Made by a program: the position numbers and the translations under genes. A DNA stretch of 39,667 nucleotides from the IMG/VR virus record IMGVR_UViG_2645727555_000028, positions 1-39,667 of that record. One strand, written 5' to 3'. The DNA comes from a virus. Taxonomy: Duplodnaviria; Heunggongvirae; Uroviricota; Caudoviricetes. This document shows, piece after piece, positions 659 to 39,667 of this stretch. Numbering within the stretch: the first letter of the stretch is position 1; every line of letters starts with the position of its first letter. Under the pieces are notes generated by a model, which made no database searches, was not told the origin of the DNA, and worked only from the letters and a program-made list of their open reading frames with translations.

Positions 659-1354
659 ATGAAAAAGGAAATACTCAAGGCTCTTTGCCCTACATGCGGT
701 GGGTTACGTAACTGCACTGTGCATGGGAAGCTAACCACTAGCTGGGAGGATTCCCAATATCCAGTTTATGGGTACCATTACCATCACCTACTCCAATGCA
801 ATGGCTGTGATACTGTCTTCTATCACCACAACGAACACTTTAGTGAGCATACTACCCACGAATATCGTGATGGTGAATTTGTAGAAACGCCTATAGATAT
901 GATCACTACCTATCCTGCCGCTGAAACATTTCAAGCTCCGATATGGTTATCCAAGCTTGAATCAGTTGATCGTCAGCTCTTTCAAATATTTAATGAAATG
1001 TATTCTTCATATACTTCTGACCATTTCATTCTTTCGTCCATCGGTTTACGGACGATTTTTGATCGAACTGCTGAACTGTTACAAATTCACCCCGGTTTGC
1101 CGCTTGGTGAAAAAGTTGAAAAATTAAAACAAGATGGAGTCATAGGCGACACTGAGGCATGCGTTATATCTTCTGTAATTGATGCAGGAAACGCCGCCGC
1201 ACATCGCAGTTGGAGCCCGAATAAAAGTGAGTTCGAACAAATGCTAGAAGCTATAGAAAGTTTTGTCCAAAGAACTATCTTGGGCAAAAAATCACTTGAA
1301 CATATAACCAAACAACTCCCACCTCGGGTTACAAGACCTAAAAATAGTGCATAA
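659..1354 (+). CDS. cargo protein: N-terminal CxxC...CxxC zinc-ribbon plus C-terminal domain resembling DUF4145 (N-x3-H motif, GNAAAH)
   Basis: 231-aa ORF; Cys pairs at residues 10/13 and 47/50; C-terminal region with IDAGNAAAH; locus visibly AT-richer than the adjacent phage genes; sits in the slot where e14 carries mcrA. Confidence 0.5.
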   Translation: MKKEILKALCPTCGGLRNCTVHGKLTTSWEDSQYPVYGYHYHHLLQCNGCDTVFYHHNEHFSEHTTHEYRDGEFVETPIDMITTYPAAETFQAPIWLSKLESVDRQLFQIFNEMYSSYTSDHFILSSIGLRTIFDRTAELLQIHPGLPLGEKVEKLKQDGVIGDTEACVISSVIDAGNAAAHRSWSPNKSEFEQMLEAIESFVQRTILGKKSLEHITKQLPPRVTRPKNSA

Positions 1355-1380: not shown

Positions 1381-1938
1381 TTATGGTTTACTTGCTACAG
1401 GGAATTTTTTATACACCGTTGAAATACCCAGATCATAAATCAGTGCGACTTGCTGCTGATATATTCCCGATTCAATCAACCTGCCAGCCTGCTCCCATTG
1501 TTCTACTGTCAGCTTTGGCTTTCGCCCACCATTCCTCCCTTCTTGTCGTGCTGCGGCAAAGCCCGCCCTAGTACGTTCGACAATAAGCTCTCGCTCCATT
1601 TCAGCCAGGGCACCCATCACATGAAAGAAAAAGCGCCCCATTGGTGTGCTGGTATCAATAGCATCCGTCAGGCTGCGAAAATTAACGCCACGTTCGCGCA
1701 ACTCCTCCACCAGCACGACAAGATGCCGCATACTGCGCCCCAGTCGGTCCAGTTTCCAGACTACCAGAGTGTCACCTGCTGATAATGTTCTGAGCAGTTT
1801 TTTCAGTCCCGGTCGGTCGGACTTAGTGCCGCTGATCTTATCTTCAAAAATCAGCTCACATCCTGCACACTCCAGCGCATTACGCTGCAATTCCGTATTC
1901 TGGTCATTTGTTGATACGCGGACATAGCCAATAAGCAT
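1381..1938 (-). CDS. pin: serine-recombinase DNA invertase (Pin/Gin/Hin family)
   Basis: translation MLIGYVRVSTNDQNT...LVVWKLDRLGRS... is a canonical resolvase/invertase catalytic domain with a C-terminal HTH; start placed at the internal MLIGY Met by comparison with the 184-aa Pin I recall; a gix-like site lies immediately upstream. Confidence 0.9.
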   Translation of the reverse strand: MLIGYVRVSTNDQNTELQRNALECAGCELIFEDKISGTKSDRPGLKKLLRTLSAGDTLVVWKLDRLGRSMRHLVVLVEELRERGVNFRSLTDAIDTSTPMGRFFFHVMGALAEMERELIVERTRAGFAAARQEGRNGGRKPKLTVEQWEQAGRLIESGIYQQQVALIYDLGISTVYKKFPVASKP

Positions 1939-1996
1939 GAGCATTCCCCTGAGTAAAAACCGGGGATGATGCCAGTTAGCCATAATCTCTGCATTT

Positions 1997-2020
1997 TCTT
2001 AAACGTTGGTTTAGGAGAAG
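1997..2020. other. invertase crossover site (gix/hix-like), left
   Basis: ttcttaaacgttggtttaggagaa; its reverse complement ttctcctaaaccaacgtttaagaa closely matches the site at 3879-3904. Confidence 0.7.
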
Positions 2021-2517
2021 GCTCAGCATTGCCTGTTGGCGTACCTGTTCCGTGGCCCTCAGCCACTCCGCCAACAGGCTGGCTAAAATGCAACGGAGCA
2101 GCTTTTTCTGCTGAAGAATACCCGGAACTGGCAAAGGCTTACCCGACAAATAAATTGCCTGATTTACGTGGTGAGTTTATTCGTGGCTGGGATGACGGAC
2201 GTGGTATGGATACGGGGAGGGCAATATTATCAGCTCAGGGCGATGCCATACGTAATATCTATGGTGAGTTCAGAACTGTAAACACTGAAAATTATTCAAT
2301 ATGGGAAACAGTAGGTTCGTTTAAGGGGGCCATAGTGCCATTGAGTCCCTCTACAAACAATAGTTATTTCTCCTTAACCAGAAGTATGGTGACAGAAAGA
2401 GCAGACGGCGCTGTTTACCCAAAAGTGATTGGCCTTGATGCTTCAAGAATTGTTCCAACTGCAAACGAAAACCGTCCTCGTAACATTGCCTTTAATTATA
2501 TCGTGAGGGCTGCCTGA
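2021..2517 (+). CDS. silent alternative tail-fibre C-terminal cassette (Sv'-like), no start of its own in this orientation
   Basis: ORF continuous from the crossover site to the stop at 2517; order matches stfE-tfaE of e14; would fuse to the constant tail-fibre N-terminus after inversion. Confidence 0.6.
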
Positions 2518-3119
2518 TGAATAAAGCGGTATTAAATAACGAACTCATTGCTATAAAAGCGGGAGACATTACCATTTATAATTATGATGGTGAAACGCGG
2601 GAATATATTTCCACATCAACTGAATATCTTGCTGTGGGTGTCGGTATCCCGCCATGTTCCTGTTTAGATGCTCCTGGCTCATATAAAGCTGGTTATGCAA
2701 TCTGCCGTTCTGCAGATTTTAACTCATGGGAATATGTGCCAGACCATCGCGGTGAAGTTGTCTATAACACCGAAACGGGAGAATCAAAAGAAATCACAGC
2801 TCCGGGTGATTACCCTGAAAATACAACCACTATCGTCCCGTTAACGCCATACGATAAATGGGATGGTGAGAAATGGGTGACAGATACTGAGGCACAGCAT
2901 AATGCCGCAGTAGACGCGGCAGAAGCACAGCGCCAGTCACTGATTGATGCAGCAATGGCTTCCATCAGTCTGATTCAGCTGAAATTACAGGCCAGACGTA
3001 AACTGACGCAGGCAGAAACAACCCGACTAAACGCTGTGCTGGATTACACTGACGCGGTGACGGCAACAGATACCAGCACCGCGCCGGACGTCATCTGGCC
3101 TGAACTGCCGGAGGCGTAG
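2517..3119 (+). CDS. tail fibre assembly protein (Tfa), silent-orientation copy
   Basis: 200-aa ORF with Tfa-type C-terminus (..LDYTDAV...APDVIWPELPEA); ATG overlaps the stop of the preceding cassette. Confidence 0.75.
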   Translation: MNKAVLNNELIAIKAGDITIYNYDGETREYISTSTEYLAVGVGIPPCSCLDAPGSYKAGYAICRSADFNSWEYVPDHRGEVVYNTETGESKEITAPGDYPENTTTIVPLTPYDKWDGEKWVTDTEAQHNAAVDAAEAQRQSLIDAAMASISLIQLKLQARRKLTQAETTRLNAVLDYTDAVTATDTSTAPDVIWPELPEA

Positions 3120-3531
3120 GCCATTCAATATCTGGCGCACCGGAAGTATCGACCAGCTCCAGTGCGTCCAGATAATCCAGCCACAAATTATATTGCGCCA
3201 GTTCCTCACCTTTCAGACGACCAATCGCCGCTTTACCAGGCCATTGCTTACTGTTTATGTATTCGTTGACCTGATTAATCAATTGCTGCTTTTCCAGTTC
3301 GGCTGCGGCAATTTGTTCCTCATGAGTTGGCGGTGGAATATCAATCCATGCAGGCATTCCGTCGATGACACCTCTGTATTTTCCTTCTGGTGCTTCCTTC
3401 ATAAATTCGGCGGCAACAGTGTCGTCAATTTCGATTCCATCATCGGGCCATTCGCCGGATTCCTGATAAGCGATTTTAAGCTCCACAGGGAAAAACGCAT
3501 TTTTATCGGCACTGAAAATATATTTCTGCAT
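3091..3531 (-). CDS. tail fibre assembly protein (Tfa), expressed-orientation copy
   Basis: 146-aa ORF with Tfa-type C-terminus (..WLDYLDALELV..APDIEWPTPP), directly downstream of the tail-fibre gene. Confidence 0.75.
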   Translation of the reverse strand: MQKYIFSADKNAFFPVELKIAYQESGEWPDDGIEIDDTVAAEFMKEAPEGKYRGVIDGMPAWIDIPPPTHEEQIAAAELEKQQLINQVNEYINSKQWPGKAAIGRLKGEELAQYNLWLDYLDALELVDTSGAPDIEWPTPPAVQAR

Positions 3532-3533
3532 TT

Positions 3534-4181
3534 CTACCGTCCTATCGAAATATAACTGAATCTGTATTGCTGTGAGATATCACTGGTTGCCACACGCCAC
3601 GCTGAATTACTGATATGTTCAAAATTTACAGACAAAACCTGCGGGGCAGGATTCGACGGGTCTGACTGAACGGCATCAGACATAACACTGACTGAAACCA
3701 TCGGCTGATTAGGGAATGGTATAGGGAAGTGTCCACTGATAAAGCGGGTCGTGTTTCCTGAAAAAGTGCCAAACTGAACAATATATCCACCTGGTAGCCT
3801 GAACCATCCCGAACCAGAAGCGAATGCTCCCATATCCGGTATCTGATTATCTCCTGTGCCCACATCCCTTTTCGCCGCTTCTCCCAAACCAAGGTTTTCG
3901 AGAGCCGTTTTCACCGTGCCATCCGATTTGATATCACCAAACGGATTCTTGCGGCTTAACAGCAGAGCACGAAGCGCGGTAAGCAACTGGTCGTTTCGCC
4001 CCTTCTCCAGGCTGGCACCGGATGCCTCCACCACGCTGCAAAGCTCCTCCTGCAACATATCAAAGTAGTCATCATCCAGATCGGTGGCAGGTGTGCCGGT
4101 CTGGGGGTTACCACGGGTAAAACCGTTCTTACCCGCGCCGAACTTATCCTTCTGCGCGGTTTTCGTGTCTATACGATGCAT
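3534..4181 (-). CDS. tail fibre protein (constant N-terminus 3905-4181 fused to the currently in-frame variable C-terminus)
   Basis: 215-aa ORF spanning the right gix-like site; position after the baseplate genes; e14 stfP-like. Confidence 0.7.
3879..3904. other. invertase crossover site (gix/hix-like), right, inside the tail-fibre gene
   Basis: ttctcccaaaccaaggttttcgagag; inverted repeat of 1997-2020; resembles the gix/hix core (..AAACC..GGTTT..). Confidence 0.7.
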
Positions 4182-4184
4182 GGA

Positions 4185-4769
4185 TTACTCCGGATATTTA
4201 AAAATTACGTAGGTATGCGACGGGCAGAGTTTGTTAAGCACACACTCGACAACGGTGTCACCCCAGATACGCAGTGCGGAATCACAGGGATCGCCACATG
4301 TCATCCAGGTGGAGTTGGTGGTGGCTGGCATGTTGACCTGCCAGTAATACCGCCATTCCGGCGCATTCACCGCGTCAGTACAGGCCGATGAGCAGGTGAA
4401 AGTGCTTTTGTCGTATCGCGTGATGGTGGCATCTGGTCTGCCCAGGGCAGCAAGCTGTGCAAGATAAAAATCCTCGTTGATGCCGCCCGCCAGGTTAACC
4501 TTCGCATCCAGCCGTTGCTGACGCTGGCGAAGGGTCTGCGTTCCCGCCGGAATACATTCATCCGGCAGACCGCACAGACGCTCCCAGCGGTTTATCAGTT
4601 CAGTGGTGGTGCGCGGATCCAGCTCCCGCATCAGGGCATCCGCACGCTGATGAACACGGGTTAATGACGGTGCCGCACCGGCAATCGCCGGATCGCTGGC
4701 TGACCACGCCGGACCGGGCGGCAACAGTGCCGATAACAGGCGGATGTAATCATCGTTTGTCACGTCCAT
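4185..4769 (-). CDS. ymfQ: tail protein, Mu gp48-like (DUF2313), YmfQ-like
   Basis: 194 aa; position between baseplate J and tail fibre; length and order match e14 ymfQ. Confidence 0.65.
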
Positions 4770-5818
4770 GAAATCGTCCCCAGTACCGCCAGTTCGTTTT
4801 TCGCAATGGAGATATTGTCCACCGGTGCAAGCAACTGATGGCTGTATTCCCCGTTCGCACCGGAAATCGCCTCACTGATACGCGATACCTTGAGTTCTCC
4901 CTGCGGATAACCATCACGCAGCAGGAACGAACGCAACTCCGCGGTAATGGCAGCCCGTATTTCTGGTGTGTCCGGCGTCACGCGGATATGAAAATCCACC
5001 GTATGTGCCACCGGCCTGAATACATACAAATCAGAGCCTGCCACCGGGGCCAGTGGCCAGATATGTTGTCTTGCTGCCGTTTCCGTTGATTCTTCCGGAA
5101 TGGGATTAATCAGGTCACTGCTGGCAATCATCACACCGACAGTTCCCGTTCCCATCCAGTGACGGTATGTCCATGCGCGGGTAATGCCGGGCACTTCTTT
5201 AGCCCAGACGACATAGTCCCCGTCAGCCCCGCCCTGAGGCGTCCAGTAATACCGCTCAATGACGCGGGCGCGCCACGTTTCCAGCTCTTCAGTATCAAAT
5301 CCACCTGTCAGGGTATCTGCCACGCCGGAAGACGGCAGACCATTAACCGGCGTGACCAGGATTAATGACGTACCGTCGTCAGCGTTACCGACCGCGCCTG
5401 CACTTGAGCAGGCGATCGGCACGCGCAGGACACTACCGGAGCTGGTTGCATCGGCAGTTGCCGTGTACTGAACCAGGTCATCGCGCTGAATAACACTCCC
5501 GGCGGTCACCTTCAGGCCATCGCTGACACCTTCCCAGCGCATATACCCGCTGGCAGCCGTGGCCCCCTTGCGCGGACACCGTTTCATCGCAGCATGTCGC
5601 GCCAGCCAGGACTCATCGCACAGGTCAGGCAGAATGTTCATTGCCAGATAATCGATGTACCCGTAAACCGTATGCAGCGCCGCCGCATACACCTTTGCCC
5701 GCACGTCTTCATCCATGCGCCGGAGCGTGTCGCTGACGTCCAGCCTGGCGAATAAATCGTTACGGAGCATACTGATATTTTCTGCCAGCGTCGGGCGCTG
5801 AAATTCACTGTCCGCCAT
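4760..5818 (-). CDS. baseplate J-like protein (Mu gp47 family)
   Basis: 352 aa; order within the Mu-type baseplate module. Confidence 0.75.
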
Positions 5819-6233
5819 GCGTTATCGCACTCCACAGATCATCAAAAGAAATCACTACTGGTCCATCACGACGCCAGAGGGTGATACTGTTACCCAGCTC
5901 ATTAATCCCGGTGCGGTGGATATCCAGATCAATACGGGACACCACGCCGTCATCAATCATCCATTGCAGGCATTCGCGGATATATCCCCTTACCGTCTGC
6001 ACCAGCTGATTGGTCAGTTTGCTGCGCTGAAGCAGCCACAGTCGGGAGCCGTAACGGTCATTCTGTACCGCAGGCCAGGTATCCCCCCACCATCCCATCG
6101 GGACGTCGGCATTGTCATCAGGCTCCGCCCGCCGCCAGGTGAACAGGGAAATCACCACGGCGCGGGTCAGCGGATCCAGCGGTGCGCTGGCGCAGGTGCG
6201 TTTACCGTTCACCGTCAGCCACAGTTCCATCAT
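5805..6233 (-). CDS. baseplate protein, Mu gp46-like
   Basis: 142 aa; overlapping start/stop with neighbours in the baseplate operon. Confidence 0.6.
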   Translation of the reverse strand: MMELWLTVNGKRTCASAPLDPLTRAVVISLFTWRRAEPDDNADVPMGWWGDTWPAVQNDRYGSRLWLLQRSKLTNQLVQTVRGYIRECLQWMIDDGVVSRIDLDIHRTGINELGNSITLWRRDGPVVISFDDLWSAITHGGQ

Positions 6234-6778
6234 GCCTCCATCGCTTTATCAGGTTTGTCGGTGTTACTGCCCTGACCGTTCTCCCTGTGACGATGCCCGT
6301 TATAGGCAAGCCGCATCGCTGACATGGTGGTGCCGCCGGAGTCGCACAGGTCTTTCACCTGTCCGGTCACTTCCAGATCCATTTCAAAACGTGCTTCAGG
6401 TGCATTGCGAAACGTGATCGTTTTCCCTGCACCGTCCACCACGATCCCCTCCCGGGTCAGCGTCACAGACTGCCCCTGATCGTCATAGACAGCCACCTCA
6501 CCCGTCTGCAGCCCTTTCAGGCGGTAGCGCCGGTCCGACACCGTAACAACCACCGCATGAGAACGGTCGCCATCCGGAAACAACACCACCGCTTCCGCAC
6601 CGCTGTTTGCCCTTGCGGTAAAACCGTAGGGTTCAAGATGTTCAACCCCGGCTTTGGGTTCACCGGCAATCAGGGACACATCCACGGTCTGACATTTCGT
6701 GGCGGCACTGATGCTTTTCACCACGGCCCGCCCAATCAGGCCGAGGAGTTGTCGCTGCATGGCTTCAATCGTCCTCAT
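6230..6778 (-). CDS. baseplate assembly protein V / spike (Mu gp45-like)
   Basis: 182 aa; position between hub and gp46-like genes. Confidence 0.65.
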   Translation of the reverse strand: MRTIEAMQRQLLGLIGRAVVKSISAATKCQTVDVSLIAGEPKAGVEHLEPYGFTARANSGAEAVVLFPDGDRSHAVVVTVSDRRYRLKGLQTGEVAVYDDQGQSVTLTREGIVVDGAGKTITFRNAPEARFEMDLEVTGQVKDLCDSGGTTMSAMRLAYNGHRHRENGQGSNTDKPDKAMEA

Positions 6779-7857
6779 CAGAACGGGTCCTCCTGTACTC
6801 TGGCTTTTTTCTTTTTCCGCGCGCCGGGGGCTTCGGGTTCAGGCAGATAAGCATCAGGTGGGCCGACACGGATTTCCGTCAGGGTGCCGTTCTGGTCCTG
6901 AGTAAACGTGACTTCCGAAACAAGCAGTTCAGTATTGTCGAAACCACAGACCGGATCGAAGACAATCACCCGCTGGTTGGGCTGCCACAGCGTACCGTTA
7001 CCCTGTCGCCAGCCCTGCACCACATAGGTGGTTTCATCCGTCCGCGCCGCCCGTTGTCGGGCTTCAAAGTCAGCACGTGCAAAACAGCCTGCCCCCGTAG
7101 CCTGCCCTGTCTGCCTGATATACATCGGACGGTAACGGGCAATAAATGCGTCCTCTGTGCGGGCCCGCAGCGCGGTGGTGGTGGCCTCACCGAAATCATC
7201 GTCGTTTCCGGCACGCTGCCCCGCCACCTGGTAAACAGAAAACCGCTCCCGGATACTCTTCTCCGTATCGCAGGAAAGGATGTTTTCCCCGAGTACCAGC
7301 GCAGTATGTGCCCGCGTTGAGCCAATCCCGCCAATCACCAGCCTGCCGTGCGGGTCGTCATAAGCCAGTGCCTGCTGCTGACCGAGTATTTTGTTGATTA
7401 CCTCAATCACCGTTTCACCATGATCAGGCTGGACATCAGTAATAACACCCGACGGCGCACCGTTGTTCACCACCTCAATGCCGAAAGGCGCAGCAAGCGC
7501 CTGCGCAATCTGTACCAGCGAGCGTCCGTTAAACTGTGTCGGTTCGGCTGCACAGTCAATCAGGTCAGCCGTCAGACTACGTCCGGCAATACCGGTGCTG
7601 ACCGAACGGGCATCGTAACGAACGGGCGTCGCCTCCACCCAGCCGGTGATCACCAGCTCATCACCAATCAGCACTTCCACTTTTGAACCGTTTTTAATGC
7701 GCGGCTGAAGCGTGGTGATACCCTCATCTCCCGGCCACTGGCGAGTGATCTCCACACTGAAATCCCGCGCCAGCCGTTCAATACCGGCACCGATGCGCAC
7801 CGATGTCCAGCCATTCCACTCCCGGCCATTTACCCGTAGTGTGACATTGTCGTTCAT
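6778..7857 (-). CDS. baseplate hub / tail protein (Mu gp44 / P-like)
   Basis: 359 aa; follows the DNA-circularization-like gene as in Mu. Confidence 0.65.
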   Translation of the reverse strand: MNDNVTLRVNGREWNGWTSVRIGAGIERLARDFSVEITRQWPGDEGITTLQPRIKNGSKVEVLIGDELVITGWVEATPVRYDARSVSTGIAGRSLTADLIDCAAEPTQFNGRSLVQIAQALAAPFGIEVVNNGAPSGVITDVQPDHGETVIEVINKILGQQQALAYDDPHGRLVIGGIGSTRAHTALVLGENILSCDTEKSIRERFSVYQVAGQRAGNDDDFGEATTTALRARTEDAFIARYRPMYIRQTGQATGAGCFARADFEARQRAARTDETTYVVQGWRQGNGTLWQPNQRVIVFDPVCGFDNTELLVSEVTFTQDQNGTLTEIRVGPPDAYLPEPEAPGARKKKKARVQEDPF

Positions 7858-9182
7858 TGCACTGGCACCTTCAGAGGGATCACCGGCACAAAGCCGGGAT
7901 GCGTAATGGCATTACGCCGGATAATGTCCGCGTCACGCGCCGCGTTATCAAACCAGGTCGCCGCCAGCACCAGCGCGGGTAAAACCTCATCCGGTGTGCG
8001 CTGAATGATCCGTGCAGACTGTTCAAGGCGCGTGTTGATATCCGCATTCAGATCTGCTTTCACCCGGCGCAGCGCCAGAAACAGCGCATCACTGGTTGTA
8101 CGGGACAACTCCTTATCAATTGCCGTATTCAGTGTGTCGCGAATGTCAGTCAGTTCTTCCCACGTCGGCAGGTCAACCGTGTTTTTCACCGCCGGTGCAT
8201 TGTTCAGTGCCGGATGCGTGACGGAAGGCCAGCCAGTGCTCTGCGCAGGTGTTGTTGCCTGCTCCACTGCGGCATTCTGCATCACCGCGGAAGTTGTTGG
8301 CGCAGGCAATCGGGTGACGGCATACGCCGCTTCGCTGATTGCGGTCGTACGAAGGGTGCTGGCAACCACGTTACGCTGCTGCGTCGCCGTGGCGGTGGTT
8401 TTACTGTCCGTTTTCCAGACGCCGCGCGGTTGCAGATCGCTGCCGAGGCTGACACCGGAAAGCGTTTTGATCATGGTGACCAGGTCGCTGGCGTTACCAT
8501 AAAGGCGTTTCCCGGTACGCCACATTTTCTGCACCTGCTCAACGAAATTTTTGCCTGACGATGGCGGCGGCAGAAGTACCGAGATATCCCCCTGCAACAG
8601 CCTGGCGGCATCCGATACGGCAGAATCCACCACTTTCATCGCATCAGAAACATACCCAAGCATTGTGCTGGCATTACCGACGACGTCGTTCTGCACAAAA
8701 TCTGCCACGCCATCGATACTGAAACCACTGAAACTGTCACTGATGCAGTCATCCAGTGCAGAACAGGATGACATCAGCGTCTGCGCCGTCGCCGCACCTG
8801 ATGTGGGGTAAGAGAGTTCTCCCGCTTCGACAAACTTCAGGTCAAAGCGGACAATACGCCCTTCACTCTTCGATGTGCTGACCCGAACCTCCCCGTCAAC
8901 ACAGACTTTCAGCTCACCGTATGTCGGATGGACAAGCGTGCCGGGACCGGGTTTATTCAGCGCGTCAATCAGGCGATCGCGCTGGTCAAAGCAGTCATCT
9001 CCCACCACATAAGCCGTGATGGACGGGCGGAAAGTGATTTTCCCCAGGTCTTCGGCATAGGGTTTGTCGCGGTTCGGGTATTCGTGCGTTTCCACACGAC
9101 GACCGGTTCCCGCACTTTCTTCTTCAACCTTAAACGGCACACCGCGAAATGACGCGTCCTGAAGTCTGTCTTTCCACGTCAT
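7854..9182 (-). CDS. tail/DNA circularization protein (Mu gp43 / N-like)
   Basis: ORF 7854-9224; start placed at the internal Met (MTWKD...) because it has a GGAG RBS and the upstream ATGs overlap an intergenic hairpin. Confidence 0.6.
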   Translation of the reverse strand: MTWKDRLQDASFRGVPFKVEEESAGTGRRVETHEYPNRDKPYAEDLGKITFRPSITAYVVGDDCFDQRDRLIDALNKPGPGTLVHPTYGELKVCVDGEVRVSTSKSEGRIVRFDLKFVEAGELSYPTSGAATAQTLMSSCSALDDCISDSFSGFSIDGVADFVQNDVVGNASTMLGYVSDAMKVVDSAVSDAARLLQGDISVLLPPPSSGKNFVEQVQKMWRTGKRLYGNASDLVTMIKTLSGVSLGSDLQPRGVWKTDSKTTATATQQRNVVASTLRTTAISEAAYAVTRLPAPTTSAVMQNAAVEQATTPAQSTGWPSVTHPALNNAPAVKNTVDLPTWEELTDIRDTLNTAIDKELSRTTSDALFLALRRVKADLNADINTRLEQSARIIQRTPDEVLPALVLAATWFDNAARDADIIRRNAITHPGFVPVIPLKVPVQ

Positions 9183-38959: not shown

Positions 38960-39667
38960 TTATTTCTCCGATTTAACCCCGAACAAATCATAAATTAATT
39001 TAGAAGTGTCTGTAAGTATTTTAATCTCTTCCTTTGAGGTTGGGTCAAACGACTTCGCGAAGCTAATTAATTGTGGTGCAGCATCTCGCATTTTGCTTAA
39101 AATATCAGGATCGAGCGTTCCTTCATTCACCAGATGTGACATCTTATCCAGATAGCCATCAAAATTCATTTCTCCCCCATCAGCCAGACGCTTCATCTCT
39201 CCCAGGTACTTCTTCATATCACGTTGAGATAATTTTTCAAACTGAGCTTTCAGGTAGCTCTCATTATTTTCATTAATATACACTGTTTCTGATAAATCTG
39301 CGTAGGCACTAGAATATGAAAGTGAAATTAACAGCGAAGCAAATAATTTTAAGCTGTTGTCATCATGTTCCTGGCAGGCATTAACAAACGTTAAAAAACC
39401 AGAACCTATTGCTTGAAAATGTATATTCGCTAAAGGTTCATTATCCTTAGATTCCTCATAAAATAGCTGAACCGTGGAGGGAAGGCCATTCTTAGTTTCT
39501 ACATCAAAAGTACATTGTTCAATGGGAGTCGCATCTTTATTATCCCCAGGATTACATATACTATTAATCGCGAAATGAAAAATAGCCCGGTCAACAACTG
39601 ATGCAATAAAGTCACGATCGTTTAAATCCTCATCAGTGCAATCGTCAATATACTTATTGACCCACAT
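38960..39667 (-). CDS. hypothetical cargo protein (235 aa or more; reaches the window edge)
   Basis: AT-rich ORF with no recognisable family; an ATG sits at the window edge but the gene may extend further. Confidence 0.45.
   Translation of the reverse strand: MWVNKYIDDCTDEDLNDRDFIASVVDRAIFHFAINSICNPGDNKDATPIEQCTFDVETKNGLPSTVQLFYEESKDNEPLANIHFQAIGSGFLTFVNACQEHDDNSLKLFASLLISLSYSSAYADLSETVYINENNESYLKAQFEKLSQRDMKKYLGEMKRLADGGEMNFDGYLDKMSHLVNEGTLDPDILSKMRDAAPQLISFAKSFDPTSKEEIKILTDTSKLIYDLFGVKSEK

Follow-up and report, generated by a model that had tools for sequence, protein, structure and literature searches.

What is the function of the single foreign-looking gene that lies between a dinI-like gene and a Pin-type invertase at one end of an E. 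coli prophage? The stretch concerned is IMG/VR record IMGVR_UViG_2645727555_000028 (Caudoviricetes), analysed over its whole length of 39,667 nucleotides and referred to here as the window; it represents an E. coli prophage inserted at dusA. The gene, at 659–1354, encodes 231 amino acids (RefSeq WP_001514810.1, product name 'DUF4145 domain-containing protein'). A first-pass annotation made from the sequence alone had picked it out as a candidate single-gene abortive-infection or defence factor. We consider it on balance probable, mainly by analogy, that this prophage gene encodes an anti-phage abortive-infection factor which works as a single gene and follows the plan of the defence protein RAZR. 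The reasons for this reading are that the protein has the same layout as RAZR, a conserved site and a variable N-terminal domain, and that the gene is a single gene of foreign origin, located in a defence slot, whose relatives occur in mobile and defence-linked contexts.

The features of the gene are listed below. Conservation figures here and throughout refer to an alignment of 120 family sequences averaging 28% column identity.

659–1354, + strand: coding sequence of the 231-residue zinc-ribbon and DUF4145/HEPN protein, with an ATG start
659–916, + strand: N-terminal domain, residues 1–86, predicted as a long antiparallel β-sheet on a Cys4 zinc ribbon; putative sensor
686–697, + strand: zinc knuckle 1, C10-P-T-C13 (C10 and C13 in 119/120)
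797–808, + strand: zinc knuckle 2, C47-N-G-C50 (C47 in 120/120, C50 in 119/120)
917–946, + strand: interdomain linker, residues 87–96, with conserved P94 and W96
947–1315, + strand: C-terminal helical HEPN-fold domain, residues 97–219
1049–1051, + strand: codon of R131, the invariant arginine of a G-x-R-T-x-F-D motif (120/120)
1187–1207, + strand: HEPN histidine motif, G177-N-A-A-A-H182-R183 (H182 invariant, R183 in 116/120)

The reading frame is as first described, and it is not a chance open reading frame, because full-length homologues with 62–84% identity are found in other enterobacterial genera. Its GC content is 41.4% (34% at third codon positions); the window as a whole has 51%, and its structural genes at 4–20 kb have 55.6%. 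The gene is thus low in GC and compositionally foreign. The suspected DUF4145 domain was confirmed by hidden Markov model search: PF13643 matches residues 115–199 (nucleotides 1001–1255) with E = 8.8e-10 and 39 bits, well above the gathering cut-off of 23.1, and covers 84 of the 88 profile positions. All 120 aligned family members match the same profile. A scan against NCBIfam gave nothing meaningful for the protein.

AlphaFold2 (AF2) predicts a two-domain structure. The full-length model (predicted local distance difference test score, pLDDT, 83) consists of a β-rich N-terminal domain with strands between residues 5 and 85, a linker, and a helical C-terminal domain spanning residues 97–219. 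When the N-terminal domain was modelled alone (pLDDT 91), it formed long antiparallel hairpins with the two CxxC knuckles at their tips. Each cysteine pair sits in a β-hairpin loop, so that the models bear out the proposed zinc ribbon, and the domain is best described, from these models, as a zinc-ribbon topology extended into a sheet. Foldseek comparison of this domain with the PDB gave nothing significant, the best match having E = 0.44. The N-terminal domain is also the more variable part of the protein, with a mean pairwise identity of 29% against 40% for the HEPN domain in the broad set of homologues; for the close set the values are 55% and 65%.

Residues 1–70 (659–870 of the window) are rich in histidine (H22, 40, 42, 43, 56, 57, 60, 64 and 67). 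This is seen in the present protein and its close relatives, and is not kept in the broad family. It could reflect extra metal binding, or nothing.

The C-terminal domain has the core fold of the HEPN superfamily. The GNAAAH sequence (residues 177–182), which had been noticed as an N-x3-H signature, is present and lies within a near-invariant motif, A-G-[N/S]-A-A-A-H-R-G-W, around H182. C47, R131, H182, W185 and P221 are invariant in the 120 sequences, while C10, C13, C50, T132, D135, A176, G177, A179–A181, R183, P187, E200 and F202 are conserved in at least 90%, with R183, D135 and E200 in at least 95%.

The combination of a zinc ribbon with DUF4145 is not in itself new, having been listed among the DUF4145 architectures by Anantharaman et al. 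2013 (PMC3710099). The closest functional precedent is RAZR, formerly PD-T7-4, a protein of about 219 amino acids from E. coli UMB1727 (accession RRL46918.1), which consists of an N-terminal Cys4 zinc finger and a C-terminal DUF4145/HEPN domain (PMC9519451, PMC13017515). RAZR acts by abortive infection, and its structures are available as PDB 9Y6U and 9Y9C (Zhang et al., Nature 2026, PMC13017515). Phage proteins that form rings, namely the T7 portal and the Erf-like Gp77 of SECphi27, serve as the core around which a RAZR 24-mer is built, and RAZR then cleaves single-stranded RNA non-specifically. The zinc-finger domain senses the phage rings, sets the specificity and is the most variable region of the protein; homologues are reportedly widespread. 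Its catalytic residues are the essential R146, set against H154 (PMC13017515).

The 231-residue protein passes the corresponding test of architecture, having a Cys4 zinc finger and DUF4145 in one protein of about 220 residues. It shares with RAZR the N-terminal Cys4 domain, the conserved linker, the C-terminal DUF4145/HEPN domain, the single polypeptide of about 220–230 residues, and a histidine within a G-N-x3-H type motif. Both families are associated with mobile elements carrying integrases, and in both the N-terminal domain is more variable than the HEPN domain. Since the layout is the same, RAZR is the best functional analogue. The likeness does not extend to the whole protein: the N-terminal domain has a larger, five-stranded β-sheet and is about 20 residues longer than that of RAZR.

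By analogy with RAZR and other HEPN abortive-infection proteins, the zinc-ribbon β-sheet domain would sense infection, most likely through binding to one of the superinfecting phage's proteins, and the DUF4145/HEPN domain would be the effector. Activation would probably occur through a changed oligomeric arrangement, which would create a composite HEPN site. The activated HEPN domain would then cleave cellular and phage RNA, leading to a stop in translation, an aborted infection and protection of the lysogen population.

Several results weigh against this reading. PADLOC v2.0.0, run as a check for a known defence family, found no match to the protein at E ≤ 1, and none of the 120 sequences matched PD-T7-4 at E ≤ 0.01, on the assumption that this model is present in the release; the same release does detect PD-T4-3, which comes from the same study. 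RAZR was compared by sequence searches of the PDB with a Gp77 control, in place of pairwise or profile–profile alignment. A phmmer search and two family profiles run against all PDB sequences found no RAZR chain at E ≤ 10. The Gp77 control retrieved 9Y6U and 9Y9C at E = 1e-142, and therefore both entries were in the set searched. No chain of 9Y6U or 9Y9C was among the 50 matches listed by Foldseek for the N-terminal domain, and RAZR chains were in none of the matches listed by three fold searches, coverage of RAZR by the fold libraries being unconfirmed in both cases. The position equivalent to R146, eight residues before H182 (I174 here), is T, V or I, rarely A or L and never arginine in the 120 sequences, and positions −5 to −7 from H182 are G, A and D, again with no arginine. 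A tblastn search of 50,697 deposited phage genomes found no homologue even at E ≤ 1. Two distant members of the family (about 30% identity) are lone chromosomal genes with no mobile-element genes visible within 8 kb. Finally, no member of the family has an experimental phenotype, and we infer the defence role. The first-pass proposal is supported: each part of it that could be checked held, and RAZR, which it did not name, is a direct precedent with an identical layout. The missing arginine and the lack of recognition by PADLOC are caveats to it.

The same results bear on how closely the protein is related to RAZR. It could be a divergent orthologue, belonging to the same family, activated on a ring scaffold by portal or Erf-like rings and forming the same 24-mer. 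The domain order is the same, the lengths are similar (231 and about 219 residues), both are single genes with an integrase or prophage association, and the RAZR family is reportedly widespread and most variable in its zinc finger. However, the PDB searches missed RAZR despite the working control, none of the 120 members matched the PD-T7-4 model, the N-terminal domain is longer with no RAZR among the matches listed, and the essential R146 has no equivalent. We regard orthology as very doubtful, and as far as sequence comparison goes, the protein is not a member of the RAZR family wherever this could be tested.

It is possible, if tentative, that the proteins form a distinct family of immune sensors, whose N-terminal domain would sense a different class of trigger from RAZR and whose HEPN site would be re-wired, with H182 working together with R131 or R183, possibly on another substrate or by another chemistry than the non-specific cleavage of single-stranded RNA. 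The conserved residues are relevant here. The family fails the test for the catalytic Rx4-6H motif (R-x7-H in RAZR), keeping, on the alignment, the HEPN histidine and not the canonical arginine. In place of the equivalent of R146 it has the invariant R131 and the conserved R183, which are candidate substitutes for the canonical arginine; R131 is a candidate catalytic or substrate-binding residue. R136-x7-H144, which occurs in the close relatives and has the spacing of R146 and H154 in RAZR, was considered as a catalytic pair and rejected, as H144 is mostly aspartate in the broad family.

Because the canonical arginine is absent from all 120 sequences, RNase activity is not assured. The sub-family passes the Pfam DUF4145 gathering threshold and shares the HEPN fold, but lacks the arginine of the canonical motif; some 20% of DUF4145 proteins have an incomplete motif, and the HEPN superfamily includes several non-catalytic families (PMC3710099). 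The protein might therefore be a non-catalytic nucleic-acid-binding or regulatory protein, in which a degenerate HEPN domain serves for binding or dimerization and the zinc ribbon binds DNA or RNA, for example to modulate prophage or host expression. This would fit the full-length match to PHROG_1305 (5e-43), which carries the label 'DNA binding protein', and the presence of MtlR-type HEPN regulators among the fold matches. The PHROG label is an untested annotation, however, and the invariant histidine in its near-invariant motif, together with the invariant R131, points to an active site that has been preserved. The gene is moreover found in defence slots and islands and not beside regulatory targets. 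A non-catalytic binding or regulatory function is therefore unlikely.

Other defence systems contain similar domains. DS-38 (HEP2, WP_001313577.1, found by DefensePredictor) is a validated single-gene defence of E. coli with HEPN and zinc-finger modules. Identity with DS-38 was rejected: DS-38 has 366 residues, an N-terminal HEPN domain and a long C-terminal multi-Cys region, and is unrelated in sequence. In BxaP and Ishtar, as in the present protein, the DUF4145/HEPN domain is the presumed effector, of abortive infection or anti-plasmid immunity. In contrast to the present protein, their HEPN domain is N-terminal, is fused to a HEAT-like domain or a β-rich C-terminal domain, and is not accompanied by a zinc ribbon.

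The gene need not be directed at phages. It could be a toxin or addiction module, or a factor in competition between elements, for example an anti-plasmid factor of the Ishtar kind, stabilizing its carrier. HEPN toxins are common in toxin–antitoxin systems, and HepT is among the best fold matches; Ishtar, which contains DUF4145, blocks conjugative plasmids; and 68 plasmids have a tblastn match to the family, of which 51, Y. pestis pMT among them, are from Yersinia. Nevertheless, no minimal nucleotidyltransferase (MNT) or other conserved antitoxin neighbour was found in the window or the homologue contexts examined, so that the HEPN–MNT test fails, and Ishtar and BxaP differ in the position of the HEPN domain and in its partners. 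A site of this kind, at a prophage end and next to genes for tail fibres and morons, is typical for genes that act in superinfection defence. We consider a toxin or anti-plasmid role quite unlikely. There is no conserved partner gene of any kind across the contexts examined, and the RAZR-like factor is for this reason regarded as a single-gene system.

Many plasmids of Y. pestis and Y. enterocolitica have a copy. The member on Y. pestis pMT (NC_017266.1), WP_002224263.1, is 41% identical and lies at 1921–2643 of the extracted locus, adjoining IS256 and IS110 transposases, with a phospholipase D gene a few kb away.

The location of the gene was the second part of the first-pass argument. The neighbouring features are as follows.

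62–310, + strand: dinI-like gene, the conserved left flank of the slot
317–415, + strand: conserved element of about 100 bp with a strong hairpin at 377–414, forming the left boundary of the variable cargo
564–585, + strand: terminator-like hairpin (CCCGCTATACGGG, then a T-run) just upstream of the gene, identified from the sequence, its fold and a pattern scan
598–648, + strand: putative promoter region of the gene itself (TTGATT ...; TAGAAT at 643–648), read by eye and below the scan threshold
1381–1938, − strand: Pin-type serine invertase (Resolvase + HTH_7), the conserved right flank of the slot

The invertase lies 26 bp past the 3′ end of the gene, on the opposite strand, and the gene does lie just outside pin as claimed. 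In e14, mcrA occupies this position, and the order icd′, mcrA, pinE and then tail fibre was verified in a K-12-like genome. A search with positions 1–2000 of the window showed that the flanks, namely dinI with its conserved spacer and, opposite, pin, are widespread and enclose variable sequence. A 257-residue GIY-YIG gene lies between these flanks in strain TK3896; PADLOC identifies it as PD-T4-3 (E = 2e-140), which is an experimentally validated defence system from the screen of Vassallo et al. (PMC9519451). Homology with the TK3896 prophage stops at about 427 and restarts at about 1395–1397, and homology to e14 also resumes at about 1395, within pin. These breakpoints define a cassette of about 430–1395.

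The dinI-to-pin slot thus passes the test for a defence hotspot, which is that conserved flanks enclose different known defence genes in related elements, and the view that this is a known prophage defence slot is upheld by PD-T4-3. The slot is an exchangeable defence-cargo site at the prophage end, holding mcrA, PD-T4-3 or the 231-residue gene. All three are single-gene cargo just outside pin, and there the similarity ends: McrA is an HNH type IV restriction enzyme and PD-T4-3 a GIY-YIG nuclease, both are unrelated to the 231-residue protein, and both act on DNA and not RNA.

Other cargo lies 3′ of the same dinI flank in E. coli 09A22CPO026 (locus 5094–7745) and UTI89 (locus 4757–6648). It consists of a DUF4760 protein, a Panacea-domain protein with an adjacent small gene (resembling PanA-type antitoxin pairs), and hypothetical proteins of 344 and 252 residues. 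PADLOC recognized none of the DUF4760, Panacea-pair and hypothetical cargo of these two loci, and they are candidates for further uncharacterized defence genes.

The element of about 100 bp just past dinI occurs once in the window. In related prophages it is found as a direct repeat on both sides of the cargo, for example around PD-T4-3, with copies at 3001–3120 and 4090–4132 of locus L011, 6704–6801 of the UTI89 locus and 7768–7849 of the 09A22CPO026 locus. Part of it is annotated by the Prokaryotic Genome Annotation Pipeline (PGAP) as a partial 'capsid protein' pseudogene. The element may be an anchor for recombination when cargo is exchanged.

Near-identical copies of the gene are rare, being present in 34 of 5,426 complete E. 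coli genomes. A word-indexed search returned 17 homologues, with 62–84% identity in Citrobacter, Enterobacter and Atlantibacter and about 40–47% in Rahnella and Burkholderia. When 1.84 billion representatives (clusters at 50% identity) were searched exhaustively with a profile, at least 2,693 matched at E ≤ 1e-3, of which 1,381 were at E ≤ 1e-10 and 287 at E ≤ 1e-30. Among the best 150 profile matches, nearly all align over both domains, and most are about 230 residues long. Members with a named source are from Yersinia, Cedecea, Pantoea and Microvirga. The family is widespread mainly in Proteobacteria, including alphaproteobacteria, and is found on prophage ends, on plasmids and in defence islands.

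The homologues in Citrobacter and Enterobacter are the outermost genes of P2-like, lambda-like (GpJ) and P22-like (tailspike) prophages, where they sit among DinI, UmuD-like and Gtr morons, and the Cedecea homologue lies directly between integrase and dinI. The Burkholderia homologue adjoins Gabija-like genes (DUF2813/AAA_15 and a UvrD-type helicase), a phosphoribosyltransferase (PRTase) and a reverse transcriptase. Rahnella aceris has two paralogues (3304–4050 and 8001–8764 of the extracted locus), about 4 kb apart; an Mrr_cat restriction-endonuclease gene separates the two, and there is an integrase close by. It had been argued at the outset that a wide occurrence in non-mobile chromosomal contexts would speak against a defence role. 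Only the two distant members mentioned above touch on this objection; the other contexts examined are mobile or defence-linked.

The two lone members are from Microvirga/Hohaiivirga (8001–8714) and a metagenomic contig (8001–8681); one lies between an adhesin cluster and a transporter, the other between mfd and corA. Six distant members of 400–507 residues (P0078, P0100, P0105, P0113, P0129 and P0159) have an extra N-terminal module of about 180–280 residues. These extensions hold more CxxC pairs, and their Pfam matches are limited to sub-threshold ones to zinc ribbons of the Lar_restr_allev type, which are uninformative on function.

The principle of immunity by a single zinc-finger and HEPN protein is already known from RAZR, which showed that a small protein of this kind can sense the geometry of phage ring assemblies. 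What is new here is a separate, large and uncharacterized lineage, whose sensor appears to have another fold and whose HEPN site is non-canonical. A literature search, using the accession and the combination of zinc ribbon, HEPN, abortive infection and prophage, found no earlier report of the family and no mention of WP_001514810.1. If these are defence proteins, the design would extend to a second and larger lineage, no tested member of which was recognized by PADLOC v2.0.0. The lineage would then serve as a natural experiment in the control of trigger specificity by sensor domains, as well as a test of HEPN RNase function without the canonical arginine. The dinI-to-pin prophage end is in any case documented as an exchangeable defence slot, which could be mined for further cargo.

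As regards expression, the hairpin at 564–585 would insulate the gene from dinI transcription. A consensus scan for a sigma-70 promoter upstream of 659–1354 found no site, and for this reason a weak promoter of its own is only inferred. The window contains no tRNA or tmRNA genes, and an Rfam scan of positions 1–2100 gave no match.

The surrounding gene order is seen in strain elppa4, which has dusA, integrase, a DinI-like gene, WP_001514810.1, the recombinase (Pin-type invertase), tail-fibre assembly genes and a Mu/P2-like baseplate. In the window, the gene is adjoined by an invertible tail-fibre region at 1381–4181, which begins with the pin invertase (1381–1938, − strand). On the + strand at 1966–3119 are a Collar-domain fibre tip and a tail-fibre assembly gene, and on the − strand at 3091–4181 an opposed assembly gene and a fibre gene. 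The region contains two pairs of inverted repeats, at 2592–2613/3513–3534 and 3038–3055/3164–3181.

At the right end of the window is a DUF2713 gene (38960–39667, − strand), which from the K-12 gene order we take to be probably the host gene yjbM. If so, the prophage would fill the dusA–yjbM interval, and the window would represent approximately the whole element minus its integrase.
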